From Candidatus Dormiibacterota bacterium (lineage in GTDB: Bacteria; Chloroflexota; Dormibacteria; Dormibacterales; Dormibacteraceae), in assembly GCA_036393875.1 (NCBI GenBank), contig DASWGF010000091.1, positions 1 through 44,586 of the forward strand: a stretch of 44,586 nucleotides of DNA, read 5' to 3'. How positions within the stretch are numbered: the first letter of the stretch is position 1; the number at the start of each line of letters is the position of its first letter. Shown here in pieces: positions 1 through 40,172 of this stretch. The position numbers were made by a program, and so were the translations under genes. The notes beneath the pieces are model-generated. The model had not been told where the DNA came from, did not search any database, and saw only the letters and a program-made list of their open reading frames with translations.

Positions 1-3000
1 GTCGTCGCCGCCGCTGCCGTAGATGATCTTGTCGGAGAAGTTGTCGACTTCCTTGCTCTGGATCTTGCGGACGCGCAGCGTCGTCTGGATCTCCTGAGGC
101 AGGGTCGGAATCGGCTTGGTCGTGTCGCGCGGTCCGGCGACGTCCTGGTCGATCTCGCCATGGTTGCCGATGACGATGCTGTCGAAGTTGCCGTACCAGG
201 CGACCGAGATCACGTGCAGCTTCGTCACGTCCACGGCCGCGAAGGCCGCAGGCACGAGATTCGTCAGCGTCAGCGTCGTCGCGGTGACGCTGCTGACGTC
301 GCCGACGAACACGCCGTCGATGGTGACCTGCGGCTGGCCCGCGGCAAAGCCCTGGGCAAGCCACGAGCCGCTGTCGCCGCGCGTGATCGTGCCCAGGCCC
401 GCCGGCTGCGCGAGCGCGATCGCGAGCTGCGACTGGAACGGATCGTTGCGCGTCGCTCCCGGCATGTCGCCGTAGAGGAGGTTGTGCCCGGCCTGCATCG
501 CGTCGCGGTTCGGGAACGAGCTCTTGTTGGTGGTCACGATGCTGAGCTGCCGCGTGATCACGTCCACGTTGATGCCCGAGGTGCCGAAGATCTGGTTCCG
601 GCCGCGGCCGCCCATGATGGTTTCGTCTCCGCCGCCGCCCGCCAGGATGTCGGGGGCCTGGGAGCCGATGATCGTGTTGTTGCCCGGGCCGCCGTAACCG
701 GTGATCCCGATCGACGGCATGCACGTGACCGTCGCATCGGCCACGCTCGCGCAATCCGGAGCCCACGGTGGAACTGCCGAGAAGGCGAGGTGGGCGTCGA
801 TCACGTTGTTGCCGGCGTAGACGAACGGATCGCCGAGCTGGAAGACGAAGAACGGAGCGCCGTTCCCGACCCGGTTGCCGACCGCGACGTTGTGCACCTT
901 GTTCGAGCCGACCAGGTCGAAGTTCGAGGTGAGGAAGGTCAGGGTCAGGGTGGACGGCGACGTGACGTCCTTGATCGTTCCGATCTGCGCCGGGGCGATC
1001 AGATGGTTCGTCGCGATCGTCGCGTTGACGAAGGTGTTGAAGTCGGCCGTGAGTGAGCCCAGCGTGATCGTGCTCGCGCTCACGGCCGTGATCAGGCCGA
1101 CGGTCGTGCCGTCGATCGTGATCAGCTGCCCGATCGCGTAGCCCGCCGCGGTCCAGTCGCCGCCGCTGCGTCCGATCGAGCCGGTCGGGCCCGAGATCGT
1201 GATCATCGCCATCAGCTGCTGAGGCTTGGCATCGATGGTCAGCTGCATGCCGACGGCGAATCCGTCCGTGATCCACGAACCGGTGTCGGTGCGCGTCAGC
1301 GTCCCGGCCGTCGACGTCGTGTGCGCGCCGCTGATCGAGAGGCCCTCGTCGTGCGGCAGAGGCTTCGAGCCGAAGTTGTGCAGGCTGATGCCGGCCGGGT
1401 TGCCTCCGTACCACAGGCCGTCCTGGGACGTGCTGCCGTAGATGACCAGCGGCGACGGCGTGCACTTCGTGAAGTCGAGCGTGCAGAGATTGGAGCCCGG
1501 ACCGCCCGCGGCGGTCGTGCTCGCGCCGCCGGTGACGTCGATGTGGTTGCCGCCGATGCGTACTGCCGCAACGACTCCCACGACACCGCTCGCGACGGGC
1601 ATCGCGCCGCCGGTCAGGGTCAGCGTGAGTCCATCGAGCGAGATCGCGCTGATCGTCCGGATGCCGCTGACGCCGGTGATCGCCACCGGCACGCCGGCGG
1701 CGAGGCCGGAGCTGGCCGCGCTGCCGGCCGTGAACGTCACCGTGGTGGCGGTGCGGTTGAAGGTGCCGCCCGCCCGGAAGCGGCTGGTCACGGCCACGGT
1801 CGAGGCGAAGTTCGTCGCCGCCAGCGCCGGCCCGCTGACGAGCAGCGTGCTGCCGTCGCCATACGTGGAGTTGTCGAAGCCGGTGATCGTCCACAGGCCG
1901 CTCAGGCCATCGATGGAGACCTGCTGGCTGTAGTCGAAGCCGAGGCTCCACCAGGGCAGGCCGTCGCGGCGGGTGATCCGGCCGGTCGTCATGTCGAACG
2001 AACCCGTCACCTGGAGGTAGTCGGATACGGAGACGGTCGCCGGGACGTTCGTGCCCGCGAGCCCCGATGCGTTCGTCAGCAGCAGCGTGCTGCCAGGACC
2101 GTAGGTGGAGTCGGCGAAGCCGGCGACCGTGTAGGACCCGTCGAGCCCGCTGCCCATGACCGTTATCTGCTGCCCGACCGCGAAGCCGGCCCCGGCAAAG
2201 CTCACCCCGTCGCGGCGGGTCAGCCGGCCCGCGGCGGCGTCAAAGGTGCCTGTCAGCGTCAGCAACGAGGCGCCGCCGCCGTTCACTGTCGTGAGCCCGC
2301 CATGGGCCGCGGCCCTGCCGGGAGTGCCGTCGGGCCGGTAGTCGGGTCCGGGCACGAGCGTGCTCACGATCGTCAGGTGGTCGTTGCCCTGGCCGAGCAG
2401 GATGTTGAGCACCTCGATCGTCGACACGTTGTTGTCGGTGGAGAAGTGGCCGCTCGCGTCGAGCTTGATCGTCCCGTAGCTGATGCCTCCCGGGTAGACG
2501 CCCGGCTCGCCAAACGGGAACGCGGCGCCAGGTGCGAGCAGGTAGCTGAAGTCGACCCCCGGTCCCATGCTCAGGCCGGTGAGGGCGGTCGAGGTCAGCG
2601 TGCCGGTCTGGTCCTGGTGGCTGCCGTCGCCGTAGATGTTCAGCGTGTCGATCTGCTGCCACTCGGGCGGCTGTGGCGCGACGCCGAACACGGGGCCGTT
2701 GCCTTCGCCGGGCAGCAGGACCGCCGCGTGCAGGGAGCGGTCGGCGTTGGTCGTGCCGCCTTCGACGGACAGCGGGCCGCGGATGCCGCTCAATGTGTGC
2801 GGCTGCTTCGAGAAGACCTTGAGGTTCTCGCGTCCGGGCGCCAGCTGGTAGTTCACGTCCGCGAGCAGCGGCACGTCGACCTGCTGGAACCAGTTCACGG
2901 TGCTGAACGTCACGGCCGCGGCCCACTGCGTGATCGTCGCCGTCGAGGAAACGCCGGCCGGCTTGGCGGTGCTGGTCAGCTTAAGGACGTTCAGGTTGCC

Positions 3001-6000
3001 GCCGCCGGCGGACTTGAACGACTGGATCTTGTAGATCGTGGGATCGGCGTCGATCTTGATGAGCTGGCCCTCGATGAAACCGCTGTCGAGCCAGCTCGTG
3101 CCGTCCGTGCGTGTGATCTCACCCGTGGCGAAGTTGTAGGAGAGCAGATGGCCGGCTGTGCCGGCGTACACGCCCTGCTCGGTGAGCTTGCTGATCGCGA
3201 CGCCGGTGAACGTGGCTGAGACGGGCGCCGGCGTCGTCAGCGTCAGGGACTTGCCGTCGAGAGCGACCGAGAGCACGTAGTAGTTGGCGTCATCCGCGCC
3301 ACCGGTGCCCGCGATGCTGATCCGCTGGCCGCCCACGAAGCCGTCGTCCAGGAAGCTCGCGAGCTCTGAGCCGGACGCCAGGGTGACGCTCGTGCCGGAG
3401 ATCGTGACGTTGCCGCTGAAGAGCTGGGTCGCGCGCAGGCCGCCGATCGAGGTGAGGCTGATCCGGCCTCCCGTGGTGACATCGGTCTGGCCGTCGGTGA
3501 GCAGCGCGACCTGGACGTCCGAGGTCGGCGCGCTGGTGAGCCGCAGCGTGTAGTCGGCGCCCGGGCCCGGGACCGTGCACGCCGCGTTGCCGCAGAGCGT
3601 CACGACGGTCACGCCATTGGTCTGGTGGACGAACACGCCGGGCGATTCGTCATCGATCACGAGGACGTCCAGCCGCTCCTGGATCCGGGGGCCGGAGCCG
3701 CCCGGAACGGACGCGTGGTACATCGGATCGGTGGTCGCCGGGTCGATCGTGTGTAGGAACGCGGTGTCGTGCGGGTCGGCGGCGGCGAAGTCGTTGCGGG
3801 CGAAGACCTGGACCATGATCGGCCGGAACCAGTTCGTGCTGTCGAACGTGGCGTAGTAGGTGGTCGGCGCGAGCGTGCAGGTCGTCGGGTCGCCCGGGAC
3901 CACGAAGCCGGCCGACGCGGTCAAACGCGCATCGGTGCTGGTCAAGCATGCCTGGCTGTCGCTTTCCGTGATGTCGACCTTGACGGTCTTGCCGACGGCA
4001 ACCGGCGCCGCGAGCTGCAGCGCGTAGAGGTCCGACACCCCTGTCCCGCCGATACCGAACGTGCCCTCGAGCACGGTGGTCTGGTTGTCGGGCTGCATCG
4101 TGGTCGGGTCGAGCTGCGTGACGAGCACGCTCGGGGAGTCCTTGTCGTAGTCGGTGACCTCGACGTTGCGCACGGCCGCTCCGTCGAAGCAGTGGAGGAG
4201 ATGCGTGTCCAGCGGGTCGCAGACGGGCTGGATCACCGAGTGGCTGACCACGATCGTGCGCGTGCCCTGGGCGCGGCTGTCGTTGACGGCCCAGACGTAG
4301 ACGGTCTGCGGGTTGTTCCAGTTGAGCCCGTTGAAGGTGAGGACCAGGGCGCGATCCGAGACGTACCGCGTGACGCCGTTGAGCGTGACGTGGCGGTAGA
4401 AGTCGCAGTTGGTCACGTCTGTACAGGCGCTCGGGCTCGACGCGGTGGTGGAGAGCAGGATCGTGTCGCCGTCGCACGTCGCTGAGGTGCACCCGGTCTT
4501 GTTCGGTGCGCCGTCCGGGTACGGGTTGGTGAGCGAGAGGTGCTCCTCGCTCGGCGGGTAGGCGGCCGATACCGTGATGTAGACGTTGCAGTTCACAGGC
4601 AGCACGCCCGCGCCACAGGTCGGCTGCGTCGCCAGGGCAGCGGTGTACGAGTCGAGCGACGGCACCGCCGGCGCGCCGAGCGGGTTCGGACACGGGTCGT
4701 TGAAGCCGAGCAGGAAGCAGCCGCCTTCGTAGACCGACGTGAACCCGCCGCTTTCGTTGATCACTACTTGGCCCTGGCCTGGCCGCGCGACACTCAGGTC
4801 GACGCCCTGAACGATGAGGCCGTTGTACCTGGGGTCGGCCGAGCTGACGAGGTGGTTGACCAGCCCGCTTGACCCGGTGATGTCCCGCGCGAAGACGTCG
4901 CCCACGACGTCGCCGCCGACGTTGATCGTGTCGCTGCCCAGGCCGCCGATGACGCGCGTCTCCATTCCCGGCGGTGTCGACAGGACGTCGATCGTGTCGT
5001 CGCCCTCGAGGGTGTCGATCTCGAGCACCTGGATGTGCACGTACGTGACCCACAGGCCGACGCCATAGACCGCCTTGGCGGTGACGACGATGTGGTCCGC
5101 GTACTCGGTGCCCAGGATGATCAGCTTGTTGAAGCCGGTGCCGCCGTCCACCGACACGGGCGCGTTCAGGTTGTACATGACCTGGTTCTGCCCGGACCCG
5201 GTGCGGATGTCGGACTCGGCGGCGGTCGAGAAGCCGCTCGTCAGCTTCGGCATGGCGATCATCGTCTGGGCGTTGAGCCAGACGATCTCGCATGTCGGTC
5301 CGTCCTTGTTGGGATCGCAAGGCGTGCCGCCCGGCGCACCGCCAAGCGTCGTCTGGGCGAGCGCGAAGCCGCGGACGATGAACAGGTTGTTGCCCGCGAT
5401 GCCCTCGAGCCGGAGCGGCGCCTGGTTCGAGTAGACCACGAATGTGTCGTCGCCGGTGCCGCCCTCGGCGAGGACGGGCTGGCTGTTGCCGCGGCTCAGC
5501 CAGCCGCGCGTCGTCGCGACGGTGGCGAACACGTCCTGCGGCGCGAGCGAACCGCCGTGGGTGTTGCGCAGGTTCAGGTCGGAGTTGACCGGGCAGGTGG
5601 ACGACGGCGTGCCGCCGCAAATCTCAGAGGAGTCGCGGAACAGGCCGTAGATCTGGCCGATCTGGAACGTGTTGTTGCCGTTGCCGCCGTCCAGCGTGGT
5701 GGTCGCGCTGTTGTCGTCCATGGCGAAGTAGTCGTTGCCGCCGAGCCCGTTGACGTTGAGGCGGCCGTTGATGCCTGTGTCGTAGTTGATGCGCTCGACC
5801 GCCTGGGTCCGCACCGACGAGCTGCCGCTCGGGTCGGAGGTCGTGACGTCGTTAGTGAGCACGCCGATCGTGATGCCGATCACCGCCACGGGCCCGGTGG
5901 GCACCTCTTCGGTGGTGAGCGACACACCGGACGGGATCGTCTCGGCGAGGGTCAGGACCGACCCGTCCAGGCTGATGCCCTGGATCGTGTAGTCGCCGGA

Positions 6001-9000
6001 GTAGATGCCGGCGCCGGTGACCCGGATGCGGCGTCCGATCACGAACGGCAGGGCGCTGAAGCTGCCCGCCGCCGCGGTGAAGGTGTGCATCTGGACGTTG
6101 ATCGACGCGCTGCCGGTGAAGGCCGAGATGGGCTCGCCGAGCTTGCCGTGCAGGAGGGCCACGAAGGCCGGGTCGTCAGCGATCGCGTTCGGCGTGTTGG
6201 GCGCGGTCGGCGAGGCGATGAACGAAGTCTTCCGCAGCAGGAAGATGTCGTCCGTCCGGCCGGAGGCGGCGTTGTAGGCGGAATTGGTGTTGTCGTAGCC
6301 GTTGACGATCAGCACGTTGACGCCGTCGCTCGGCGCGTGCGTGTCGAGCACGTTGATCACGTAGTTGTGGCAGGTCCCGCCGCTCGGGTCGCCGCCCTGG
6401 CCGAGCGCGGCGTCGAGGCACGGCTGGCTACCGCTGGTGTTGATGACATAGGTGTTGGTGCCGGACTGGCCGTCCAGCGTCAACGTGTGGCCGGCCGCGA
6501 CGGTCATCGTCGGCAGCTGGTTGACGAAGAAGAAGTCCTCGCCATCGCCGAGCGGCGCGTACATGCCGGCGCACGCCAGCGCGGTGTGGGCGGTGCAGGT
6601 CGGGGTGTTCGAGCCGTAGACGAACGTCCGGCCGCCCAGGTGCGTCTGGTCGAAGTTGAAGGTGTCGCCGTCCTCGTTGCCGAAGATGCGGGTGATGTTG
6701 CAGTCGAGGCCCGGGTTGATCTCAGACGCGCACGACCCGCTGAGCGTGCCGGGGGTGATCACGCCCGCGAGGTGCATGATCGAGCCGTAGCCCGGGTCGC
6801 TGGAGTCGGTGATGAACCCTCCGCTCGAGGCCTCGTTCACGCGGGCGTAGTCGCCGTAGATGTCGATGTTGTTGCCGGCCACGATCTGTGCGTTCGGGTC
6901 GGTGTTCACGTTGTCGCCGACGCGGAGCTCGATCGAGCCGTTCGGCGTGTTGATGAAGCCGTTCGGGACCGCTTCCGGGCCCGTCTCGGCGAACAACACC
7001 GAGCCCGAGGCCAGCAGGTTCAGGTCCTCGCCCGAGGTGGCGGAGCTATGGCGCACAGTGAAGCGCACCGTGTACGGCTGGTGGCCGTGGTTGCCGAACG
7101 CCTGGATCAGGACGACGCGCGCGTCACCCGAGGTCTCGGTGGCGTAGATGCTGTCGTCGGCGCGCAGGCCGATCGTCCCGCCGCTCACATAGTGCTGCGA
7201 GTCGAACTCGAGGTCGTTGTTGCCAGACGGGTCGCCGATGCTGCCGTGCCGAGCCCACAGGTTGATCGTGTTCGCGAAGATCTTGGTCTGGTCCGTGCCC
7301 AGAGAACCGGTGCGGGCGTCGACGATGTCGCCGCTCTCAGTCCGAGCCGAGACGTCACCCTTCGTGTCGATCGTGTGGATCTGCAGGTCGTCCGCGGTTT
7401 GGTCGATGAACACGCCGGGCGTGAATGCGGCGAACGTGTCGTAGATCCGCACCACGCCGAGGCCGCCCGCGCCCTCGCTCCCCAGCAAGTCGACGTGGAT
7501 CTCCAGGAAGTCGGTCGGCAGCCCCACGCCGCCCAATGCCTTGCTGTCCGCAAAGCACTGCGGGTTGGACGCCGTCCCGGTCGCCAGGTCGGTGAGGAGG
7601 CCGCTGCCCGGGCACATCGTGATGTCGGTGCCGGCGCTGACGTTGGTGTGGCTCCCGTCCTCGGCCAGCGCGTCGAGGATCCGCGCCGGCCCATATAGAA
7701 GGACGTAGTTGGCGTCGGAGGTGATCGTCCCGACTCGCAGGTCATCGGTCTTCTCGTAGATCGTGATGAAGCCGTCCGTGTGGACGTCGAGGTGGTGCGA
7801 GTCGGATGAGCCGGCTGTAAACCCGGTGCCCAGGTTGTCCGTGATCCCGAGCACGTTGACCTGGTTCGGGTGGCTCGATGCCTCGGTGATGATGATGTTG
7901 TTGCCCGCCGTGACGCCCGGCAGCACCCGGTTGCCGGCCGCATCCAGCCCGCGGAAGTCGTAGGTGCTCGTGACGCCTGAGCTCGTGTCGGCGAACACGC
8001 CGCGGTCCAGGCCGGGGGCCGAGGCGCTGTCGGGCGTGTTGAAGAAGGTGTAGTGCGTCTCACCGCCGGGTTGGGCCGGGTACTTGACCAGGACACCGCT
8101 TGTCGTACCGGAAGCCGTCTGGCTGAGGCTGCTCTGGAGGATGAAGTCGGCGTAGTGGCCGGCATTGACGTAGTCGATGGTCACGTGGTAGTCGCCGCTC
8201 GCTTCGCGCAGCAGGCCGCGGACGTCCATCCAGATGTTGTTCGGCGCGTTCACGGCAAAGCGGCGGACCGGGGTCAAGGTGTGGCCGTCGGTGAGCGAGC
8301 CGCCCGGGGTCAGGTGGATGGCCACTCCGGACGTGGGGCTCGTCGAGAGCTGCAGGCTGAGCCCATCGGACGACCCGATCACGTAGTAGTAGGTGCCGCT
8401 CACAAGACCGCCGATCGCGGTCGCGGCGGCGTCGTACCGGATCTGCTCGCCAGTGAAGAACTGGTTCGGCCCGAGGTAGATGGCGTCCGTGACCGTCGAG
8501 ACGCGGGCAGTCGCGAAGTTGGTGCCCACCGGCGCGTCTGTGCTCTCGACCTGGTCCACGTTGATGCGCGCGCCGCTCGCGCCGACGTCGTTGGACGACA
8601 CGATGTTGAGGATGTTCGTGATGATCAGCGACCCGCTGCCGCGGACGCCACTCGAGAAGACGTTGCCCGCGGGGTTGACGATGGAGGTCGTGCCGATCGG
8701 GTTGTCGATCTTGCCGTTGACGGTGACGTCCGGGTCCGTGTTCTGAACATCGACGAGCGTCGGGGCGACCGTGCGGTGGATGTGGAACTGGAGCGTCACC
8801 GTATTGGCGGCCAGGTCGGCGATCGGCTGGGTCGTGGCGTTGTAGACCTGGATGCCGTTGAGCTGCAGGCCCTTGCTCGACAGGTTGACGATGCGGACCT
8901 GCTCGAGGGTGTCGCGGAAAGTCCAGTTCGAGATTCCGCCCGAGATCGTGTCCGAGCGGAACAGGACCGTGCCCGGGCCCGGGTTGACGATGTTGTTGAC

Positions 9001-12000
9001 GTTGATGGTGCTGTCGTGGATCAGGCCGGACATCCGGGTCGCATTGAGGCCGGAGACGTCATTGACGCTTGCCTCGACCGCCTTGGTGATCGTGCCTGTG
9101 TGGTCGATGAAGAGCTGGGGCATGCGGCCCGAGAGGATCAGCACATCGGCGTTGAAGGGCACGGTCCGGCTCTGCTGGTCGTTGTTGCCGTGCTCCCTTC
9201 CGCCGCCGGCCGCGAGCGAGCGGCGGCTGACGTGCCCATTGGCCCCGGCGCAGCCGGAGCACGCGATCTCGGTGTCGACCAAGAACGCCAGGTGACCGTA
9301 GCCGGTCGTCTGGTCGAGATACGGGTTGGCGGGATCGCGCGGACCGGCTGTGATCAGCGCGCCTGACGCGCCGTCGACCTTGACGTTCAGGTTCGTATTG
9401 TTGGTCGCGTCCGCGGAGACGTAACCGAAGAGGCCGGTAGAGCGGGCGAAGGAGTCGGCGAAGGTGCTGACCCCGTCGTCCTTGGCGCGGAAGTCGACGC
9501 CCTCGAGACCCTTCACCTCGGCGCTCGAACCGATCACGACGTCGGTATCGGTCGTGCTCTCGGCTTTGGCCTCGTCGATGCCTTCGCTGTAGAAGCCCGC
9601 GCCGTACGACTCGCTGTGCGCGTTCACGCGGAGTCCAGGCACCGTGTACGTGCCCGGTCCTCCATTTCCGACCTGGATGTCACCGATGTCGGCAGTGGCA
9701 GCCACGGCGTTGGCGATCACGCCTGCGCTGGAGGCGATCTCAGCCTTGGTGGTCGCGCCGTTGCCGTTGTTGCCGACCTGCGAGCTGGCCCTGCCGTGTC
9801 CGTCCGCGCCGAAGCCAAGCCCGCTCGCATATGCGTTGGAATCGGCGTTGGTCGCGGTCTTGGCGGCGAGGTCGACCGTGCCGTGGGCAAGGATGTTCGC
9901 CCCGCTCTTGATGGTGGCCGTCGTCGTGTAGTCGACGTTCACCGTCGCAGAGCGCCCGATCGCCACGCCGATCGCGCCACCCGCGGTGGAGCGGACCGAG
10001 CCAAAGTCGTTGTTCGCGCTGGTCGCACCCACGACGACGTTGCCGACCGCGATCAGCTGTGTGCTCGAGTCGACGTACGCGACGCTCTGGTTGTACGAGT
10101 TGATCGTCGAGCTCGCCAGGCCGACGCCGACGATTCCGCCTGTGCCGTTCTTGGCGTTGGTCGTCACGTTCGTGTTCGACGCGGTGTTGACGGTGATGTT
10201 CGCGCCGGCGGTCATGAGGCTCGAGGCGATGTAGGCCTTGACGGTCGGGTTGGCGTCGGCGTCGGCCGTGTTGCCGTTGACGCCCAGCAGGATGCCTCCG
10301 CCGGAACCGAGCGAGGTCACCGAGCTGACACCGTCACCGGAGGGCGGCGAAACGCTCGTGAGCGGCACCCCGCCCGGGCCGAGCAGGGTGTTGGTCGGCG
10401 GGACGCCCGGGCCGCCGGTGAGGTGGATCGCGAGCTCCTGCAGGCCCGTTGCCGGCGTGAGGTGGACCACCTCGCTCAGGCCGTGGAGCGCGCTCCCGAG
10501 CCCGGTGGTGTCGAAGCTCAGGATCGGGCCGCCCGACGACTCCGACAGCTGGAACGTGTCGCCCGACACGCCCTCGACGAAGTACGACTTGCCGTCGACG
10601 AGCCGCGACGTCGAGCCGTTCGCCGTGATCTTGAAGGGCAGGTCGGTCAGCGCCGTCAGCGTGTGGTTGGTGCTGGCGGGGTTCGGGTTGGGCGGCGTGA
10701 ACGTATCCGAGTGGGTCGTGTTGGCCACCTTGGTGGTCGACAGCGCGAGCACCGGAGAGTCGAATGTCGCGGTGACGCCGCCCGTCCGCGCCAGTGTGGC
10801 GGTGGCGGTTCCGGCGCCGAGGAGCACCGAGTGGCCGAGCGTGATCGTGTTGCCCGACACGCTGAAGGACGTCAGCGTGAGGTCCCCACCAGGTGCCCCG
10901 CTGGTGCTGATCGAGCTGCCGAAATCGATGCCGCTGAAGTCGCCGCTGACCCGCTGGATGAAGTCGTGGTAGTCGGGGTCACCCGGGTTCGGGTCTAGGC
11001 CCTGGTGGAAGACGAAGCTGTCGGTGACCGAGGTGCCGGTGAGCGTGCCGCCCGACGCGATGGTCATCGTCAGGTCGGTCACGTTGCTGACCGTGTAAGA
11101 CGACCCGTTGTTCAGGGGCGAGCTCTTGATGATGAGCGTCTGCCCGACGCCGTAGCCGTCGGCGATCCAGCTCCCGCTCGAGCGGGTGACGGTGCCCGCG
11201 TCGCGGTCGAACTGAACCGAGCCTGTGAACAGCTTGCCTCGCTTGACCTGGATGATGCTGTGGTCCGACGACGGGTAGGAGATCCGGTACGAGAAGCCTG
11301 GCGTCAGGCCGCCGATGTCGACTGCCCCGGATCCAGGCGCCGTGGAGTAGTCGTTGTAGATCACGAGCTGGTTGTCCGCGAACGGCCAATCGGTAGGCTG
11401 CCCGGTCAGGGGGTTGAGCAACATGATGTTGTTGGCGCCGGGGTTGTCGGTGACGTCCGCGACGGTAACGCCGCCCACGATGTGCGTGCCGCCGTTGACG
11501 TTCACCTGGCCGTTCTGGAAGGTCGCCGGCGCAGGGGCGTGGTAGGTGACGGCCTCGCCGTTCGTGAACGGGTGGGCGGAGGCACCCAGTCCGGAGATCG
11601 TGAACGTCTGGTTGTCCCCACCGAGGCTGGCGGCCGAGAACCTCTTGACGAAGTCGCTGTCGGTCGGGTTCTGCGTCTGGACCAGCCTGATGGTGCGGTC
11701 GTTGACGACGATCACGTAATACACCGTGCTGCTGGTCAGCCCGCCGACCGTCGACACTGTGCCGAAGGCCGGATCGTAATTGACCTGATCGCCGGTCGTG
11801 AAGTTGTGCCCGGACGCGAACAGGATCGTGTCGGGCGACGAGTCGATGCAAGAGTTCACGCCGCCGCACGCCTGGCCGTTGAACTGTGAGCCGAACTTGA
11901 TGAAGTTGGGATCGACGACCCCGCCGCTGATCACGTCGAGCACGTTGTACTGGCGGCGGACGGTAATCGTGCCGCCGGTGAAGTTCGGGTCGTTGTCGAG

Positions 12001-24000: not shown

Positions 24001-27000
24001 CGCGCTGTCCTCCTCGTTGCCTTGCGCACTCAACGTGACGTCGCCGCCCGTGGCCGTCACGTTCGCGCCGGAGGAAACGATCGCCTCGGTGTGGTCCGAG
24101 ACGATGTTCAACGCGAGCGCGCCGGCGATGCTGACCGTGCTCTTGTCACCACCCGCGCCCGATGTGGCTTCGGCGCTGATGTCGTGCTCGGCGAGGCGGT
24201 AGTAATTGCCTTCAGCTGGGCTCGGCGGGAAGGTCACGCCGTCGCCTTGCGAGACCCAGCTGCTGCCGTTCCACTTGTAGATGCCCGCGGCGAACTCCGG
24301 CGTGGTGGCGGCCGACGTGATGGTGGCCTTGTCGTCGGCCGTGCCGACGCACCCGCCGACGAAGGTGAACGTCGTCGGCGTCGTGCCGCCGTACGTGCAG
24401 GTGACGCCCAGACCGTCGACCTTGAACGTGCCGCCGCCCGCGTTGAAGCCGGCGGTCGAGTTGACCAGGAGCGTCCCGACGGTGAGGTCTTGCGCCCCAA
24501 CTACCGCGGTCGTCGCGTTCGACGCCTTCAGCAGCTGGAAATAGTCGCCGGTCGCGGGGCTGACGGGCAGCGTCGACCCGGTCGCGATGCCGGCGATCTG
24601 GAAGTCCCAGTTCGACGTCGAGTCGTTCCACTTGTAGACGCCTGGCAGCTTGGTGACCCGCGTGACGGCTGCGCCATCCTTCGGCGTGCCGGTGCAGCCG
24701 CTGACGCCGAAGTGGGTCCCGTCGGCGACGACGTAGGTGCAGGTGCCGGTGCCGCCGGCGGCGGTCAGCGACCCGCTCGGCTCGAAGCCCGACGTGGAGG
24801 TGACGGTCAGGGTCCCACCGGCGAGGTCCTGGCCGGCCCCGCCTACGAACGTCCCGGTCGTCATCGTGACGGTCGCCTTGTCGTCGGGCTTCACGGTCGA
24901 GGTCGTGCAGTCGCCCGCGATCGCGAAGTGGGTCGAGTCGGTGACGGTGTAGTTGCACTCCTTGTCGATGCCGTCGATCTTGAGCGTGCCGGTCGTGGCG
25001 GCCGCGCCGAAGCCGGCAGTCGACTTGACCTTGAGCGTGAGGCCGCCCAGGTTCTGCGTCGCGCCATCGACCGTCGTCGTTGCGGGCGTGGCTTTGGTGA
25101 GCTGGAAGAGGTCGTCCTTCGATGGCGACTCGGGGAACGTCTCCCCGGTGTCGATCGTCTTCCAGTCGGTCCCGTCGAAGCGCTGGATGCGGTCCTGGCC
25201 GTTGACCAGCATTCCAACTTCGATGTCGAGGCCCTTGGCGCTGACGACTGCGTTGCCTGTCGTCGCCATGTTGGTGATGTCGACCTTGTTCACCGACACG
25301 CCGACGCCGATCCCGACGGATCCAGCCTCGGCGGCCTTGCCGCTTCCATTGGCGCTGGCGTCGGTGTTCGCCCGCGTCTTGAGGGTGAGCGCCCCGCCCG
25401 CCGCCGTGACGTTGGAGCCGTCCGCAAGCGATGCCTGGGTGATGGAGGTCACGATGTTGATCGCGGCGGCGCCCGCCACGGTGACCGTGTTCGAATCCTT
25501 GCTCGAGTCGGTATTGCCGTTGCTGTCCGCGGTGTCGGCCTTGGCCTTGCTCGTGTCGGTGGTGCTCGAGGTCTTGCCCGTGCCGTCCTTGCTTTCGGTG
25601 TTTGCGTTCTTGACCTGGTCGTCGGCCTTGCCGTTGACATCCTTGCCGGAGCTGTCGTGCGCGCTGTCGGTGGTTGAGGTGGTGTCCTTGCCCTTGGCGC
25701 CGGTGGCGCTGGCGTCGGCCTCCGTCACGGTGGTGGATGAGCCGGTGGCCGAGAAGCTGACCGACTTCGTGCTGTTGAGCGTTCGGGAGTCCGTCGCGGT
25801 CACCTCGTCGTCCGGAATCGCGAGCGCGAGCGCCAGCCCGATCACCACGGTGCCGCTGACCGCGTCTGCTTTCGCGGTGGTGGTGGCCTTGGCGGTCTGA
25901 GTCGCGCTCAGGCTGATCGCGTCGCTCGTCGTGAGCGACTGCGACGCGCCACCGGCGATCCTCGCGGTCGTGATCACGGTCGGGAGGGCGATCGCCGCAT
26001 CGGCTGTCAGGCTGAGCGTCGAGCCATCCGCGCCGGCGGTGCCCGCCTCGGCGTAGGTCGTCATCGAGTCGGTGCCGGTCGCGGCCAGCGTGACCTTCTT
26101 GGCGCTTCTGACGTCCGCACCGTCGTCGATCGACGCGCTCGTCGCGTCGCGCACGATGTTGATGGCGGCGCCGGCGCCGATGCCGACGGTGCTGGCGTCC
26201 TTGTCGCTGGCCATCGCCTTCGCGGTGCTGTCCACCGATGAGGTGCCGGACTGCGAGACATCGCCCGCGACCGTGTCGTGGGCGGTGCCCGTGGCGCGGA
26301 TCGAGGCGCTCGTCTCGAAATCGGCGATGGTCAGTGCCAGCGAGCCCGCGATGCCGACCTTGCCGGCTCCGCCGCCGGCGGTCGCCTCGGTGTCAAGGGT
26401 GCTCTTGCCGTCGGGTTCGCTGCTGACCGCCTTCCAGTTCGCGGCGTCGGAGTGCGGCGCCACCATGTCGGTCGCGACGTCGTTCAGCGCCGCGTACTTG
26501 TTGCCGTCGAATGTGTCGATGACGGCGTCGCCCTGGCTGTAGCTGGTGCCGGACAGCCAGTTGTTGACGAGCGTCCAGTTCGCCAGGTCGTGGTGCGGAG
26601 CCAACACGTCGTTGGCGACGGCGTTCTTCGCGACGTAAACGTGCCCGTCGAGCTTGTCGGTCACCACGTCGCCCTTGCTGTAGCTCGTGCCGGATGTCCA
26701 GCTGCCCTTGCTCTGAGCCGACTTGTTCAAGGCGGCGGTCAGGGTCAGGCCGGTGGAGTTGACCACCGTGTTGGCGTTGCTCCATTTCGTGGGGTCGGAA
26801 TGCGGCGCCAGCGCGTCGGCCACAAGGTTGCTCTTGGCGGCGTACCTGTTTCCGTCGACCGAGTCGGTGACGACGTCGCCCTGGCTGTAGTTGCCGGGTG
26901 TGGACGACCAGATGCCCTGGTCGGGCCCGGTGCCGGTGGTCGCCTGGTTGGTGACCTTCACGAGGTTGATGGCCGCCGCGACCCCGATGTTGGCCGTCTT

Positions 27001-30000
27001 GGCCTTGGTCGCGCTGCCCTTGGCGATGACCTTAGAGTCGACGTCCTCTGAGGTGGTGAGGCTGAGGGTGCCGGCCGTCGTGACCGAGATTCCGTCGGCG
27101 AGCGTGGCGAGCGCCTTCGCCGTGACGATGGCGATGGCGGCGGCGGCGGCGACCGTCACGGTCGTGCCGCCGTTTTCACCGCTCTTCGCCTTGGGCGTGC
27201 TCGACGAGCCCGAATCCTTGTTATCCGCGGATTTCGACGTGTCGTTGCCGAGCTTCAGGTTGTCGTCGGCTTTGCCGTTGACGTCCTTGTTGGAGCTGTC
27301 GGTCGAGGTGTCGCCAGAGTCTTTCTTTCCAGGCGCGCCGGCGGAGCTCGCGTTCGACTCCGTGTCATTGACTGACGCCCCGTCGGCGGCGAAGCTGACG
27401 GCGCCGCCGGCGCCGGCCAGGTTGCGGTTGAGCTGCGAGCTGACGATGTGATTCGCCACCAGCAGACCGAGCGACAAGCCGATCCCGGCAGTCCCTCCCT
27501 TCGTCGAGCCGCTCGCGGTCGTCGTGGTCGTCGCGTTTTGCTTCGCGTGAGCGGTCAGCGTCCCGCCGAGCGTCAGGTCGGGGCCGGTCCCGATCGAGGC
27601 GCTCGTCGTGACGTTCGAGATGGCGATCGCGACCTGCGCCGAGAGCGCGAGGCTGCCGCTACCGGCGGAGGCGCCGCCGTCTGCTTTGGTCGTCATCGAG
27701 TCCGCCGCCGTCGCGTTGACGGCCAGGTTGTGAGCGCCGGTGAGCTGCGACAGATCGGCCAGGCCCGACTTCGTCGTGTCGTTGACGACGTTGACGGCCA
27801 CCGAGGCGCCGATGCCGCTTGCGCTCCCGTCGCTCGCCTGCTTGGCGTCGGCCGTCGCGTTGCTCGCCTGGTTTGAGGTCGTCGTCAGGGTCAGATCGCC
27901 GCCGGTGTAAGTGACCGGCGTGGGCGTCTCGACGTCGGCGGTTGTGTGCGTCGTGATGACGTTGACCGCGATCGAGCCCGCGACGCCGACGCTGCTGCCA
28001 CCTGCGCCGGAGGTCGAATGCGTGGTGAAGCTGGAGGCACCGGGGCCCAGGGCTTCCAAGGTCACACCGCCTGGCGCGGTCAGGGTCGTGTTGCCGCCGA
28101 GGTAGGCGTGGGTGTCGACGACCGCGACGTTGACGGCGACCGCGATGGCGAAGCCCGACTTCGCATCGGTGCTCGGTAGGTCACCCGTGGTCGGATCCGT
28201 CATGACCGTGTTGTCGTGGTAGATCGTTCCGCCGAGGACCGCGTCCAGCAGGAACTCCTTCCCCGCGGCGGTGCTGCGGTAGATCCGGTACCCGATCGCG
28301 TTGACGACCGCGGTCCAGTTGACCGTGATCTGGTTGATGGCCGCGGTGCCGGGCACCTTGTAGGAACCCTCGGGGCCGGGCAGGCTCTCGTTCGCGCTGG
28401 TGACCGCGGCGCCGCCCGTCGGAACGCCGGCGCATCCGGTGACGTGGAACGCGGTCAGCGACGTGATCGTGTAGGAGCATGTGGCGCTGAGGACGCCGAC
28501 GGTCAATACGCCGCTCGGGTCGAAACCGCCCGTCGACACGACGTTGAGGGTTCCGCCCGAGAGGTTTGGCACAGCGCCGCTGACGGTGGTGCTGTTGTCG
28601 CCGGTCGTCAGCGCCGTGATCCGGTAGTAGTAGGTCGTACCGCCTGTCAGGAATCCGCCGGTCACGGCGGGGGCGGTGAACGTCGGGACGTCGGGCGTGA
28701 ACTGCACGTTCCCGGCGTCCGCGATCGCGGACGTGTTGTTGGTGGCCCCGGCGTGGATCTTCTGCGATCCAGTCGCGTTGATGGCGACCGATCCGCTGGC
28801 CGGCGCGATGTAGGCCTTGGTCGTCTCGACCACCACCGTCACGGCCAGCGCGCCGGCGAGACCCTGGCTCCCTTCGCCTGTCTTGGACTTGCCGTCCGCC
28901 TGGCTCGCGGAAGTGTCCTTGAAGCCTGGCTGGCTGGAGTCGAGCCGAGAGCTGTTGCTGTTCGCGTCCTGGCCCGAGTCGTTCCCGGTCGCGGCGCCCG
29001 GGCTTTCCTTGGCGGTGGTGGGTGCGGTGTTGCTGGTGTCGGCCGAGATGGTCAGGTTGGCCGATGTGATTGGGGTCGCCGCGGCGCTGTCGACGAATGC
29101 CTCGGAGTCCGTCGTGAGCACCGCCACTGCGATGCCTGCGCCCGAACCGGCGCCGGTGGAGTCGGCCTTGGAGGAGATGTTGGTCTTGACGTTGGAGGTG
29201 ATCGAGACGTTGCCGGTCGCGGTGATGGCGCTCGTGCCAGAGAGCTGGCTCACCGCGTTGGCCAGCACCTGGGCAACCGTCACGGAGGAGTCACTGGCCT
29301 TGGCGTCTTTCCAGTTCGTGGTGTCGGACGCCGGGTTGGTCGTGCTCGTCACGTTGTTCAGGGCGGCGTAGCGCTTGTTGTTGAAGGTGACGATGTCGCC
29401 CTTCGTGTAGGGGAAGCCCGACGACCAAGCACCCAGGTCGGCGCCACCGGCCGCGTTGGCGGAGGCGAGGACGTTCGCGACGCTCGCGATCTTCACGTCG
29501 CCACCCGTCGCGGTGATCGTCGAGGCGCCGTGGACGTTGATCGTGCCCTGGTAGATGAGCTGCAGCCCGGCATGGTTGATGCCGGTTCCGCTTCCGGTCT
29601 CGGCGATGCCAGTCGTGACGGCGGCGCCGTTGGCCGGCGTGCCGGTGCAGACGGTGATCGAGGTGAACGACGTGTCGGTCTTGCTGCTGTAGCTGCACGG
29701 GCCCGAGCCCCCGTCGACGCTGAACGTGCCGGTGTCGTCGAAACCAAACGTCGACGCGACGTGGAGCGTGCCCAAAGCCAGGCTGTCGCCGCCCGGGGTC
29801 ACGGTGGTGCTCAACGTTCCAGCGAATGCCTCGAGGTCGATCGACGAGCCGCTGAGGGTGGCTCCGTCCAGCTCGATGCCAGCGTTGACCCCCAGCAAGG
29901 TGGTCGTGATGCCCAGGAGGCTGTGCCCGTTGCTCTGGTAGGTCGCGTTGAGGTTGATGGTGCTGGTGGTGGTGAGCTTGGCGGCAGAGTCGAGCTTGAT

Positions 30001-33000
30001 CGATGAGCCGTCCACCTCTACTGGGGCCGCCAAGGAGTCGAGCGTCCCGCTGATCTCCACATTCGACTTGCCGGCGTTGATGATCAGCGAGGTCATGGCC
30101 GACCGCGCTGTCGCGATCGACCCGGAAGCGATGGTGCCAATCAGCGGGAGCGTGTAGAAGAATGCCAGTCCCGTGCCGCCGCCGTCGCTCACATGCAGCG
30201 TCGCGACGCCCGTTGGCTCTTTGAGGCTGATGACTGCGGCCGCCGCATTGGTCCAGCACAGATAGTTCAAGACCCCGTCGCACGTCGCGCCGAGAGTGAA
30301 GAAGCTGAAGTGGTTGACCGTCGCGATCAGCTGCCGGTTCGGCCAGTCCAGCGTGGTCGGCTCGCGGACCCAGGTCTGGCTCGCCGCGTCCCAATGGAAT
30401 ACCGACATCGCCTGCGCCTGCGCCTGGGTCGTTCCGGCCGGGAGTGCAAAAGCGAGGGTCGCGGGCTGGTCGAGCCGGTGCACCGGCGCGCCGCTGGCGA
30501 GGCTGGTGGCGTTCACGTCGTAGACCGGCCCGAATGCGGTCATGCCAGTTCCCATGGCGGGCGGCGCTGTTTCGGGGGTGACGCCGACGGCGAGCCTCTC
30601 GCTGGTCGCGGCCTGGACGCCGACCGCCAGGTTGCCGTCGGATGAGGTCGCCTTGCCGCTCGAGTTGAAGGAGGAGACCGCGGTCGCGTTCTGGATCGCG
30701 GTGAAGGCGATCGACGGGCTCAGCCGCACCACCTGGTACTGGTAGCTGCTCCCGGGCAGCACGGCGGTGTCGACGTAATTAGTGGCGCTGGTCGTGCCCA
30801 ACGAAGAGAAGATCGAGCCGGAGCCATATGCCCGGCGAACCTGGAATAGGTCTCCGGCCGCCCCTGTCCAGGTCAGCTGAACGCCGGTAGAGGTCGCTGT
30901 GGAATTGAGATTGAAGCCGGGAGTTGGCGGCCCGCGAGCGCCGACCGCGCCAACCGCGAACGAGTCGAACTGTTGCGCGGTGCGACCTGAGTTATCGGTC
31001 GCGGTGACTCTCCAGACGTACTTGCCGGCGGCGAGGCCGGCGGTGCTGAACGAGGTCGACCATGCGATCAAGCCGGCCACCCCGACCACTGGCCCGCCAG
31101 GAGCCGACGGGGTCGCGGGCTTGGTCGGCAGCACATTGGGGATTGCGGTCCAATCGCTGCTTCCGATCGGCGCGAACGAAAAGTCGACCGAGGCGATGCC
31201 AAGGTGAGACGAGACCTGGGCGACCAGGTCCACGATCGCCTGGTCGGGCCGATCGGCGGCATTCGGAGTCAGAATCGTGAGGTCAGGCGGCATCAGGTTC
31301 CAGACCGCCGGCGTGGTGATCCATTGCGTCTCGCTGAACGCACTCTCGTTGCCGTAGACGTCGATCTGCGTCACCACATAGGCGATCGACTGCGCGCCGG
31401 CGAGCGACGCGTCCAGGAACGAGCTGGCAGAGAGGCTGGTGGCGGCAAGCGAGTAACCGCTGCCGATGGAGCGGTAGACGTTATACGTTCCTCCCGCGAC
31501 TGCGGTCCAGCTCACGCGGACACTGTCACCCGAGATCGACGAGCTGAGCCCGGTCACCGTGGGTGCGGTGTGGACGACGTTCAAGACCGAAATGGCGGTC
31601 TGCGTCACGACGGCGCCGCCCGACGTCACCCCAACCGCTCGGACCTGGTGAGAACCTTCGGAGAGTCCGCCGGTCGCGACACTGCCGCTCGCCGTCCAGG
31701 TCTGGCCATTGACGATGGCCGAAAGCTGACCGACGACGACCCAGGCGCCCTGCTGCAGGGCCTGCAGCTCGACTGATGAAAAGCTGACCGAGCCTTGACC
31801 CGATGCGGAGACGTCCACCGTCGATCCCGCAGATCCAGTGGTCTGGCTGCTGCCGAGCGTCAGCGTGCCGGGACTCTGGGGCGCAGCCGCAAGCCCTCCG
31901 GATGACAGCACAAATGCTGTCGACGAGGCGGACTGTGGCACGGGCACGAGCGCTGCGCTGACGACCTGCGATGCGGCGCCGTCGTTGTTGCCGCTGAAGG
32001 CGCGGACTCGGTAGTAGGCCACCGCGCCGACGGTCGCGGAGTCGCGGTAGACCATCTCGCCAGTGGTGCCGAGCACCCTGAACGGTCCGTCTGCCTGCCA
32101 CGCGCGCTCGACGGTGTAACCGGCGGCCTGCGGGACCGCGGCCCAGAGCAGGGTCACCGAACCACCACCGGCGACTGCATGAACACCGATGGGCGCAGCC
32201 AGCGAGTCCGTCTCGTTTCCCGTCGACGGCCGCACCACGTCCGGCACCGTGATGGCGGTCGTCGCCGACGCCTGACCCGCCGCGCCGTCGGAGTTGTATG
32301 CCTGCACGCGGTATTGGTTCTTGCCCGGCTGCGCGCTGCGATCGACGTACTGAGTTCCGATCACCCGGTCGAGGACGACCCAGCTGTTCCCGTCGAGCCG
32401 GCTCACGGCGTAAGACGCCGGCATCTCACCCTGCGACGGGCTCCAGTGAAGCGAGACACCGAAGGGCGTGATCGTGGCCGTCGGTGCGGAAGGCGCCGGC
32501 AGGCCACCATCGCCTCGCAGCGTGAATCCCTTCGCCTGCCCTACTCCAGCGGGCACCTCCGCCCTCACCGAGTAGTGGCCCCTCGGCAGAGAAGCCACGT
32601 TCCAGTCGACGGTGCATGTCGGCGCACACGACATCGTGCCGTGCACCGTCTGCCACGCTCCCCCGTCGCCGGCATACTGGAAAGCCACACCGCTGCCTGC
32701 GGACGCGTCGCTCACCAACATCAGCCGGTCGTCGACCGCACCGTCCGGCGCGACCTTGTCTCCACTCGGAAGCGTCAGCGTCAGCGTGGGTGGTGTGAGC
32801 GGCCTGGTTCCCGAGGTGGCCGAGACGGTGACCGACGCGGCCGGACTGGTGTTTCCGAACTTGTCCTCGAGGACCACCTTGTACGTGTGCGAGCCCGGCG
32901 CCGGGGTCTCGTCCGTCCACGAAAGCGCGCCGGTCGCGACTGTGCCCACCGGTTCGACATCGGTGTCTTTCTGGACGAGGTACGCGGCGCCGTTGACAGT

Positions 33001-34734: not shown

Positions 34735-34749
34735 CTTGAGGAGCGCTTT

Positions 34750-34763
34750 CAGGGCGTCCCTCC
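34750..34763 (-). promoter_or_regulatory. Shine-Dalgarno GGAGGG with an in-frame CTG 5 nt downstream (candidate alternative start of the giant gene)
   Basis: The minus strand reads GGAGGG (34763-34758), then ACGCC, then CTG (34752-34750), then AAA GCG CTC CTC AAG ATG (34734). The SD is 5 nt from the CTG but 23 nt from the ATG. There is no ATG, GTG or TTG between the upstream TAA and ATG 34734. Confidence 0.4.
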
Positions 34764-34777
34764 GCCGTCGACGGCGG
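34762..34777. promoter_or_regulatory. Perfect 16-nt palindrome CCGCCGTCGACGGCGG overlapping the SD of the giant gene (potential 5'-UTR hairpin)
   Basis: The palindrome was read directly from the sequence. Its 3' arm on the mRNA strand shares two G residues with the GGAGGG SD. Confidence 0.7.
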
Positions 34778-34903
34778 CTACTGTCACGCTGCTTTTACAC
34801 AAAAAAGAGCGCAAATCAGCGCGTGCTGAAATGCACCAAATAGACGACCCAAAACCCTCCCTTCCTCCTGACGCTGACGACCGGATCCCGATGTAGTTGG
34901 CGA

Positions 34904-34932
34904 AGCATATCACCGGCCAGAGACTTTGTTAA
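34904..34932 (-). promoter_or_regulatory. Candidate sigma70-like promoter for the giant gene (TTAACA, 17-nt spacer, TATGCT)
   Basis: The minus strand has TTAACA (34932-34927), a 17-nt spacer and TATGCT (34909-34904), inside the only clearly AT-richer stretch of the window. This is a pattern match only. Confidence 0.25.
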
Positions 34933-35083
34933 GAAATTTTGGGGGAGATATGAATTAAGTCTTGTAATTGTTTGCAGACGCTGCCCGCGGCCGGTCAGCG
35001 CCGCGATGTCGGTGGGGTTTCACGCCCCGTCCTTCTTATATGTAGAGAGCGTGAAGTCGCTCACAGCCGCGCGCCGGTAGGCT

Positions 35084-35653: not shown

Positions 35654-35654
35654 G

Positions 35655-36272: not shown

Positions 36273-36601
36273 GCAGCTAAGTCTGGCGCGCCTTGCGCGT
36301 CAGGTGTTCACAGGCGGGCTCGGGTGCGGCGGGACGCAGTCGCGATCGGTCGCCGCCTGCATGATCTGGCCCTGCGGCCCGATCGGACAGACCGGCGGCG
36401 TCGACCAGTAGAAGTGCCCGATCAGCAAACCGAGCACGGCCACCACCAAGAAGGCGAGAACCGGGAAACGGCGCGCCCACGCCGCGACCCATCGGCCAAT
36501 GGGCTGCTGGTAGGTCGTGCACGCGAAATGTCGTCCGCCTGGCCGCCAATGTCAAACGGCGCGCAGCTACCACTTGACAACGCCAACGCGCGGCGGCTGG
36601 G

Positions 36602-37560: not shown

Positions 37561-40172
<2,612 letters not shown>

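Follow-up and report, generated by a model that had tools for sequence, protein, structure and literature searches.

A contig from a Dormibacteria-type genome carries the 5' 34.7 kb of a giant gene with a putative adhesive filament product

A single reading frame of at least 11,578 codons

The window analyzed here is the whole of contig DASWGF010000091.1 (44,586 nt; assembly GCA_036393875.1, Candidatus Dormiibacterota bacterium), and most of it is taken up by one giant gene on the minus strand. A six-frame scan that keeps edge-truncated open reading frames (ORFs) found the minus strand stop free from 34794 to 1, a run of 11,598 codons, while the longest other stop-free run in any frame of the window has 941. 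The first canonical start of the run is the ATG at 34734, followed by a second in-frame ATG at 34713, giving an ORF of 11,578 codons (34,734 bp; 1..34734, minus strand) that is cut by the contig end at position 1. Residues are numbered below with ATG 34734 as amino acid (aa) 1. The scan confirms the initial annotation, which had proposed a single minus-strand ORF of at least 11,578 codons from this ATG to nt 1. At the composition of the window (67.5% G+C), the probability of a stop per codon is 0.0216, meaning one stop every ~46 codons, so that a run of 11,598 codons without a stop would arise by chance with a probability of ~1e-110. In every 3-kb block of the giant frame, G+C content is 0.83 to 0.95 at third codon positions (GC3) and 0.48 to 0.64 at first and second positions (GC1 and GC2), the pattern of a real high-GC gene over the full ORF length. 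The visible product has a mass of 1,154 kDa and a pI of 4.63 and is rich in A/G/T/S/V, and its 34,734 bp from ATG to contig end exceed the 30,000 bp of uninterrupted ORF that define a very large gene.

Why was such an ORF unseen in the ORF track of the window? ORFs that extend past the end of their source are left out by the ORF lister, and all the long minus-strand ORFs that it does list in this interval sit in another frame, as had been claimed. The long plus-strand ORFs inside 1-34734 have a GC1 of 0.91 to 0.95 and are V/A/R/G/D-rich, which marks them as antisense shadows; the His enrichment also ascribed to them was not borne out, His not being among their top residues. A broader suggestion, that gene callers can miss or fragment the gene, needs correction: the invisibility is specific to the track used, and public callers gave partial products of 2,404 and 3,781 aa on other contigs. 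The 11,578-aa window product itself is absent from the protein database, and no family member above ~8,000 aa is listed in the representative library, an indication that products of great length or cut by a contig edge are underrepresented there. The window is the complete contig, 44,586 bp being the greatest length recorded for any contig that carries its flank proteins; therefore, the missing 3' end of the gene coincides with the contig end.

Assembly integrity and strain variants

Could the continuous frame be an assembly artifact, or the remains of a decaying, functionless pseudogene? TRF found only three tiny arrays in the window, and self-BLAST gave a best repeat of 78% identity and a longest exact direct repeat of 20 bp; at the protein level, repeats are mutually just 25 to 57% identical. 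Because DNA repeats do not exceed 78% identity or 20 bp of exact match, repeat collapse or chimerism inside the contig is unlikely, and we discarded it; the check for misassembled repeats that the initial annotation called for thus reveals no assembly-confounding DNA repeats.

Contigs of the same population cover only window 4808-9313 and 25629-44586. Six independent metagenome contigs of other samples (L001 to L006) cover window 25629-44586 at 96.7 to 99.4% identity, and four of them (L001, L002, L005, and L006) retain the frame over its first 1,000 to 2,400 codons, L002 with a 15-nt in-frame insertion. When five strain-variant contigs are compared with the window, differences in the giant frame are mostly synonymous, with a ratio of nonsynonymous to synonymous polymorphism (pN/pS) of 0.07 to 0.14, indicating that the giant frame is translated and under purifying selection.

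Two contigs count against continuity, and they supply independent breaks of the frame of the kind that the initial annotation had named as evidence against itself. L004 (~4218) has a frame-breaking 26-bp deletion at window ~32597. L015, which covers window 4808-9313, has four indels (-62, +17, -136, and -1 at window 8258, 7841, 6618, and 5005), of which the first two restore the frame (net -45) and the last two break it. However, the pN/pS of L004 is 0.076, and the range of 0.07 to 0.14 holds on both sides of its deletion, while L015 resembles a chimeric strain-mixture contig since its identity to the window falls from 100% to ~90% exactly at the 136-bp gap. The indel of L004 is better explained as a recent variant, a minority allele or an assembly artifact, and L015 as a chimeric or strain-mixed assembly.

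Frameshifts also occur in three homologues described below, L008, L009, and the plasmid gene of Rhodococcus antarcticus, so some alleles may be decaying. The frame changes of L008 and L009 nevertheless fall inside conserved motifs and look like indel errors, which probably fragment giant genes in public protein sets. Neither errors nor decay can produce a stop-free run of 11,598 codons whose GC3 is close to 0.9, and the low pN/pS, the frame kept in four assemblies, and the lack of long DNA repeats likewise make an artifact or pseudogene extremely improbable. What the contig contains is therefore the 5' part, 34.7 kb, of one intact protein-coding gene under purifying selection.

L008 (783-21010) and L009 (1-21185) lie on contigs of the "contig_N" type, where they are called as strings of 250- to 5,900-aa genes on the same strand. 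The breaks of L008, L009, and the Rhodococcus gene suggested that the family might be divided into two genes at a conserved position, around aa 9,500-9,650. We rejected this: the breaks fall in different conserved motifs, and most of the 80 metagenome loci kept are continuous at that position. A dip in homologue coverage at the same place corresponds to a stretch of ~100 aa absent from the Rhodococcus homologue.

Domain anatomy and structure predictions

Behind a signal-like N terminus, a divergent immunoglobulin (Ig)-like array occupies aa ~300-1400 (30535..33837, minus strand, as for all parts of the giant gene below), with internal repeats of 150 to 190 aa and sub-threshold matches to He_PIG, Big_13, PKD-like, GH85_C, and Fn3-like models. 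Carbohydrate-binding modules were sought by scanning the protein in pieces against PF02839 (cutoff, 26.2 bits). CBM5/12 module 1 (aa 1769-1808; 29311..29430; 27.2 bits) lies just upstream of the shaft, module 3 (aa 5321-5346; 18697..18774; 37.9 bits) lies in a shaft island, and a CBM5/12-like module 2 (aa ~2679-2702; 26629..26700) scores 23.5 bits.

The shaft, delimited by repeat analysis and NF012206 matches, spans aa 1837-8447 (~6,600 aa; 9394..29226) and consists of ~110 tandem beta repeats of 53 to 59 aa each, organized in double units of ~118 aa (55 matches to a double-unit hidden Markov model) and a super-repeat of 356 aa. It is interrupted by six nonrepeat islands (aa 2010-2183, 2588-2776, 3171-3515, 4485-4760, 5150-5415, and 7533-8138). 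NF012206 (LktA_tand_53, "tandem repeat-containing filamentous protein") scores 74.9 bits against a cutoff of 50 and matches 15 stretches in aa 1-4999; it does not match the 59-aa version of the repeat in aa 6001-6474.

The sequence beyond the shaft, aa 8448-11,346, is overall nonrepetitive and has no Pfam or NCBIfam match. It starts with a region lacking any family match (aa 8448-9240; 7015..9393) and leads into a core (aa 9241-10,420, ~1,200 aa) whose strong conservation extends to about 100 database proteins. Core part 1 (aa 9241-10020; 4675..7014) contains degenerate GGxGxDxF motifs ~50 aa apart and has no Pfam, NCBIfam, or PDB match; it is the most conserved stretch of the protein, with 75 to 81% identity to L008 and L009 near aa 9750-10000. 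An alignment of 56 homologues reveals near-invariant G/D/F columns that form these GGxGxDxF-like motifs, followed by a Calx-beta-like pattern. Core part 2 (aa ~10020-10420; 3475..4674) consists of tandem Calx-beta/Ig-like domains, as judged from a structure model and Foldseek. Further beta domains follow (aa 10421-11346; 697..3474; 52 to 73% identity to L007, L008, and L009), in which aa 10427-10593, 10814-10973, and 11011-11171 are internal repeats of one another, and then the first RTX nonapeptide block (aa 11347-11382; 589..696; PF00353, 30.8 to 32.5 bits against a cutoff of 23).

The initial annotation had listed FN3, CBM5/12-like, and RTX modules. RTX stands, and CBM5/12 stands at two sites, whereas FN3 does not: Pfam gives no fn3 match, and the sole signals are a match to 3mpc ("Fn3-like"; E value of 4.8e-4, 19.7 bits) and the sub-threshold Ig-like matches. 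PDB sequence searches with all three thirds of the protein returned only one marginal Fn3-like match, and PDB profile searches with the shaft and core alignments returned nothing. No LPxTG motif occurs in the visible 11,578 aa. A catalytic domain was considered and dismissed, since the window protein has no HExxH or similar catalytic motif and aa 8,400-11,000 have no family match. Overall, the core of the initial annotation, one real gene that exceeds 34.7 kb, lacks its 3' end here, and has an extracellular modular product, is supported, also by the collinear giant homologues described below.

A shaft segment, aa 6001-6474 (15313..16734), was modeled with AlphaFold2 from an alignment that combined repeat blocks of the window with 22 homologues (predicted local distance difference test score [pLDDT], 92.5; predicted template-modeling score [pTM], 0.91). 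The model is all-beta, with strands of 20 to 31 residues joined by 2-residue turns, and its high pTM favors a continuously stacked body. A PDB fold search found nothing at an E value of ≤0.001 (best, 0.07; template-modeling [TM] score, ≤0.12), and a BFVD search gave a single match to an uncharacterized protein (E value of 8e-4; TM score of 0.20, ≤0.24), which is not meaningful. Every one of the weak PDB matches is a beta-solenoid (SufBD, ice-binding proteins, tapirin, curli CsgA, FapC, and EtpA). The core, modeled over aa 9241-10,420 from an alignment of 56 sequences (pLDDT, 80.4; pTM, 0.87), is predicted to begin with short strands at ~10-residue spacing, beta-roll or beta-helix like, and to continue into tandem Ig/Calx-beta domains. 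For the latter, Foldseek matched the Ig domains of PrgB, CfaB, integrin alpha legs, and NCX1 CBD12, with E values of 1.7e-5 to 1e-3 over ~400 aligned columns.

The two ends of the protein

The protein begins MLLGTGAMAAS, and its first 22 residues, MLLGTGAMAASVAVVLVVQSVA before SY (34669..34734), read as a signal peptide-like N terminus. They form the sole strongly hydrophobic N-terminal window and end in SVA, followed by SY; they could serve instead as an uncleaved membrane anchor. An NCBIfam scan of residues 1 to 1840 matched no LEPR-XLL domain. Ahead of the first ATG, the frame stays open through a leader, KQRDSSRRRRRRDALKALLK (34735..34794, minus strand), written SSRRRRRRDALKALLK for window 34735-34797; it is arginine-rich and contains no ATG, GTG, or TTG. 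A CTG at 34755, 5 nt past a Shine-Dalgarno-like GGAGGG site, is a possible alternative start, which would supply a textbook n-region. The stop codon at 34797-34795 is kept in seven assemblies, polymorphic between TAA and TAG. The sequence of the leader is reminiscent of a signal n-region or of a twin-arginine-like motif. Reading it as a twin-arginine translocation (Tat) or LEPR-XLL leader was rejected because no canonical start precedes it and the stop is kept in the seven assemblies. Between the signal and the Ig-like array, aa ~60-320 (window ~33780-34560) comprise four consecutive segments of ~60 residues with a similar alpha/beta-looking pattern, e.g., FSQAQQAIEQAGGQVTSFDSGTGLAAATVP, and no family match.

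How long is the full protein? Genome-contig scans with the last 400 aa recovered no 3' end of the same gene, only a homologue labeled Gaiellaceae (L007) at 61% identity, and a scan of JGI metagenomes with the last 500 aa gave no match. The ORF of L007 has another 1,339 aa beyond this point, in which seven RTX stretches, Ig domains of the Big_13 and Big_6 types, and a helical tail occur; in homologues, the RTX region goes on for ~700 aa past the break imposed here by the contig end. The 14 closest metagenome loci have their stop 2,337 to 3,002 codons after the core, compared with 1,158 codons visible here. From the ends of the homologous ORFs, we infer a full-length protein of ~12,800 to 13,400 aa, with 1,200 to 1,850 codons missing.

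A predicted adhesive filament

We put the probability at roughly 60% that the gene encodes an adhesive filament that is exported via Sec, is stiffened by Ca2+, and attaches the cell to polymers or other cells through its CBM5/12 and Ig-like modules. The N-terminal signal would direct export via Sec in a Terrabacteria-type host, probably one of Candidatus Dormibacteria, and may be retained as a membrane anchor. Outside the cell, Ca2+ would bind at the RTX, Calx-beta, and GGxGxD sites, upon which the protein would fold and stiffen, and the filament would project ~100 nm or more from the cell. In soil, the CBM5/12 and Ig-like modules would then bind polymers of the chitin or cellulose type, other cells, or particles and so keep the cell attached. 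It is from the features described above that we infer the export route, Ca2+ binding, rigidity, anchoring, and ligand of the protein.

Besides the broken alleles in other assemblies, several points weigh against this reading. If ATG 34734 is the start, the signal peptide lacks an n-region with positive charge. None of the FN3 and Ig calls in the N-terminal part reaches its threshold, and CBM5/12-like module 2, inside a shaft island, lies under the PF02839 cutoff. The shaft model is without structural match, its candidate geometries being a stacked solenoid or a long-hairpin ribbon. No LPXTG or other anchor occurs at the C terminus of L007, and the 3' end of the window gene and its downstream genes, any dedicated secretion genes included, lie beyond the contig. 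The host assignment from flank matches rests on the names of metagenome-assembled genomes (MAGs). Finally, both expression and the filament role are predicted from sequence and models.

Homologues and the export route

Searched with the core alignment, metagenome contigs yielded at least 215 loci. In most of the 80 loci kept, the ORF is stop free through the entire 10-kb upstream flank and for ~2,300 to 3,200 codons downstream, making giant size the rule in this family. The count of 14,542 matches at an E value of ≤0.001 in the representative library is inflated by Calx-beta-like multirepeat proteins and does not measure family size. The smaller "complete" members L036 and L080 were not used; their 3' ends, which read VSYTHLTLPTKRIV and LSLIHI before the stop, presumably are translations of library adaptors.

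Two collinear homologues come from cultured bacteria. The first, WP_114295156.1 (12,918 aa, "LEPR-XLL domain-containing protein"), is encoded on plasmid pDSM107133_a of Pseudosulfitobacter sp. DSM 107133. In tblastn it is collinear with window aa 4,500-11,400, shaft repeats included, at 37 to 41% identity in the shaft (aa 6000-6900) and 39 to 45% in the core; its N terminus reads MEALEPRFLLSA. The second, on plasmid unnamed3 of Rhodococcus antarcticus strain 75 (NZ_CP110618.1), is ~10,000 aa long, occupies more than half of the 54.9-kb plasmid, and is collinear with window aa ~2,100-11,400 at 30 to 56% identity. One frameshift within the conserved DDxFLLR...FVALLH motif splits it into RHODO2019_RS19090 and RS19095, annotated as two hypothetical proteins. 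In NZ_CP110618.1 6750-38452 (L094/L098), the stop-free frame reaches 1.7 kb upstream of the annotated start, and this extension holds a signal-like segment, a P/T-rich linker, and a HELGHFLGLDH metzincin motif, with a minus-strand "hypothetical protein" annotated inside it. RefSeq annotation thus appears to both truncate and split the Rhodococcus homologue.

The surroundings of the homologues bear on the export route. Diderm family members have a LEPR-XLL motif at their start and HlyD, site-2-protease, and SapC neighbors; downstream of WP_114295156.1 lie genes for HlyD, a site-2 protease, SapC, and a prepilin peptidase, and 13 distant metagenome loci have SapC and a GAF-HlyD adaptor downstream. 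In L018, L045, L024, L070, and L095, giant ORFs are followed by genes for SapC, a GAF-domain HlyD adaptor, and a site-2-protease/PqqD-like protein. The recurrent SapC/HlyD/site-2-protease set is a candidate dedicated export or processing system. Hence, the window protein might instead leave the cell C terminus first through a Sap or type I-like system encoded beyond the contig end, with its N-terminal hydrophobic segment as a retention anchor, a route to which the RTX block on the C-terminal side and the sapC and tolC-like genes flanking the Chlorochromatium giants discussed below would also conform. We consider this unlikely, though it is the most probable of the alternatives. No ABC transporter, membrane fusion protein, or SapC gene occurs in the 9.8 kb upstream of the giant gene, the nearest loci (L007, L008, and L009) have other downstream genes without such domains, and L007 does not stop right after its RTX stretches but continues into Ig domains and a helical tail. 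The window protein, moreover, lacks a LEPR-XLL domain, and the homologue in the monoderm Rhodococcus has a signal peptide-like N terminus. Sec export of the filament therefore stays the preferred route.

Comparison with known giant proteins

Proteins of at least 10,000 aa are known in several phyla, Actinobacteriota included, reach 85,804 aa, and have been linked to adhesion (bioRxiv 10.1101/2023.11.21.568195). In the size classes of West-Roberts et al., "large" proteins have at least 10,000 aa and "giant" ones at least 30,000 aa (bioRxiv 10.1101/2023.11.21.568195), so the window gene belongs to the "large" class, far below the maximum of that survey. The initial annotation, which ranked the gene among the largest in bacteria, overstated the case, since the 12,918-aa collinear RefSeq homologue was already annotated as well. 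The giants of Omnitrophota have multiple transmembrane regions and a SecA-DEAD domain, and the window protein has neither.

Another comparison is offered by Cag_663 and Cag_665 of Chlorobium chlorochromatii, the Chlorochromatium giants, which have 36,806 and 20,647 aa, N-terminal LEPRxLL domains, and sapC and tolC-like neighbors and are reported to form Ca-binding beta-helical filaments of 240 to 400 nm with no similar solved structure (bioRxiv 10.64898/2026.03.19.712371). They are also reported to act at cell-cell contacts and to move from the epibiont to the partner cell (bioRxiv 10.64898/2026.03.19.712371). WP_114295156.1 is similar in size to the window protein, and the LEPR-XLL giants (WP_114295156.1, and Cag_663 and Cag_665 by class only, likened by description) share with it an all-beta, Ca-binding filament build, which for the window protein is predicted. 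Unlike these giants, the window protein has a Sec-like signal in place of a LEPR-XLL N terminus, CBM5/12 inserts, and a Terrabacteria host, and its visible flank is without SapC and HlyD.

The movement reported for the Chlorochromatium giants of this class raises the question of whether the window protein is more than a passive adhesin: it might serve as a contact-dependent effector or as a transfer filament directed at neighboring cells, in competition or symbiosis. Its shaft repeats do match a model named after LktA, an FhaB-like leukotoxin. However, no toxin, nuclease, protease, or pore-forming domain was detected in its 11,578 aa or in the C-terminal extension of L007, no immunity-like small gene was found, and the CBM5/12 modules suggest polysaccharide binding. 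Nor does it resemble the two-partner secretion (TPS) exoproteins FhaB and LktA beyond a beta-rich filament and the NF012206 match: these have an N-terminal TPS domain and a TpsB gene, whereas aa 1-900 have no Pfam match to a TPS domain (PF05860/Haemagg_act) at an E value of ≤1 and the flank has no POTRA/ShlB gene for a TpsB partner. An effector role is accordingly improbable. The beta-helices of EtpA, Hbp, and Ag43 are not superposable on the modeled shaft (TM score, ≤0.12).

A further comparison is with the giant RTX adhesins exported by type I secretion (LapA, SiiE, and Marinomonas MpIBP), which share with the window protein a megadalton size, a long repetitive extender, carbohydrate-binding modules, and a C-terminal RTX region. 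The rigidity of such adhesins, e.g., SiiE, depends on Ca2+. Their extender is made of BIg domains of ~100 aa, in contrast to the 53- to 59-aa beta repeats of the shaft, and they have an N-terminal retention module and type I secretion system genes, whereas the window shows a Sec-like signal and no such genes in the flank; the homologue L007 differs further in carrying Ig domains and a helical tail after RTX. The Rhodococcus antarcticus homologue resembles the window protein in its monoderm Actinomycetota host (soil/ice) and the signal-like N terminus of its extended ORF and differs in being plasmid-borne and in having an HExxHxxGxxH metzincin motif in its N-terminal extension, which the window protein lacks.

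What is already known, then, is that this rare class of giant genes is catalogued and that a collinear homologue of near-equal size is in RefSeq. What is new is a giant of a LEPR-XLL-related class present in a Dormibacteria-type genome as an accessory insertion, with a Sec-like N terminus and CBM5/12 inserts. Its shaft repeat and conserved core fall outside current domain and structure libraries and mark large blind spots in them. Tentatively, and with less confidence than for the filament role, we suggest that these proteins make up an undescribed, widespread family of filaments of ~10,000 to 13,000 residues. Such a family would combine a shaft fold without solved counterpart with a Ca-binding core of ~1,200 residues unannotated in Pfam, NCBIfam, and PDB. 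It would have spread horizontally (plasmid-borne in Rhodococcus, roseobacters, and rhizobia; beside DUF8412 in one Dormibacteria lineage) and exchanged the LEPR-XLL/Sap route for a Sec signal on entering monoderms.

Through these homologues, a soil lineage that is itself uncultured is linked to a family known from cultured bacteria (Rhodococcus antarcticus strain 75 and Pseudosulfitobacter sp. DSM 107133) and to the giants of the Chlorochromatium symbiosis, whose cell-cell role is being shown experimentally. A gene of ~39 kb would amount to roughly 1.4% of a typical 2.9-Mb Dormibacteria genome, in a class with few reported giant genes, suggesting that the cell invests heavily in one surface molecule. 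Giant genes are systematically hidden or broken up by tracks that drop edge ORFs and by the annotation of long-read assemblies that contain frameshifts.

Flanking genes, host, and accessory status

The 9.8-kb flank encodes, in order from the giant gene, a DUF8412/OmdA protein, an FMN-binding protein, a response regulator, a hybrid histidine kinase, an Exo_endo_phos protein (named exodeoxyribonuclease III [ExoIII] by sources), a LigD primase-polymerase, tRNA-Ala(GGC), a dienelactone hydrolase, and an NAD-dependent epimerase. Three of the flank proteins fall into 90%-identity clusters with proteins of two "Candidatus Dormibacteraeota bacterium" MAGs. The class Dormibacteria has a median G+C content of 66.9%, a median genome size of 2.87 Mb, and few reported giant genes (PMC10608941), and the 67.5% G+C of the window is in line with this median.

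Three related, Dormibacteria-like contigs are syntenic with the flank, namely, L012 (91 to 94% nucleotide identity), L013 (88 to 91%), and L010 (85 to 86%). In all three, homology ends at window ~35062, and ABC transporter genes, with or without an acetyltransferase gene, lie beside DUF8412 with no giant gene, indicating that the giant gene is accessory in this lineage. The best homologues are labeled Gaiellaceae, Actinomycetota, etc., which fits horizontal acquisition, MAG labels being weak evidence. Given also that cultured bacteria carry members of the family on plasmids, the gene was probably acquired horizontally.

The accessory status also bears on whether the protein might instead be part of the envelope structure, for example as a coat of the S-layer type, as a sheath, or as a surface that interacts with ice or minerals. 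Acidic, Ca-binding repeats rich in A/G/T/S/V and weak fold matches to ice-binding proteins, RsaA, and curli would suit such a role, and sapC genes were first tied to S-layer export. Yet the fold matches are nonsignificant (E value of ≥0.07; TM score of ≤0.12), a single chain of 13,000 aa is unlikely as a lattice unit, and a gene absent from close relatives is unlikely to form an essential envelope layer. An envelope component is thus very unlikely, and the adhesive filament remains the preferred reading.

The giant gene and the DUF8412/OmdA gene are divergent, separated by an intergenic region (34735..35092) with an AT-rich stretch at ~34925-34985 that is unusual for the host genome. At the other side of the flank, tRNA-Ala(GGC) (42602-42678, minus strand) lies between the LigD primase-polymerase and dienelactone hydrolase genes. 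The block on its low-coordinate side is variable: L012 has sugar-metabolism genes replacing those for ExoIII, LigD, and the dienelactone hydrolase, and L010 additionally lacks the histidine kinase and response regulator genes. The tRNA-Ala(GGC) neighborhood may therefore be a second variable spot of this locus.

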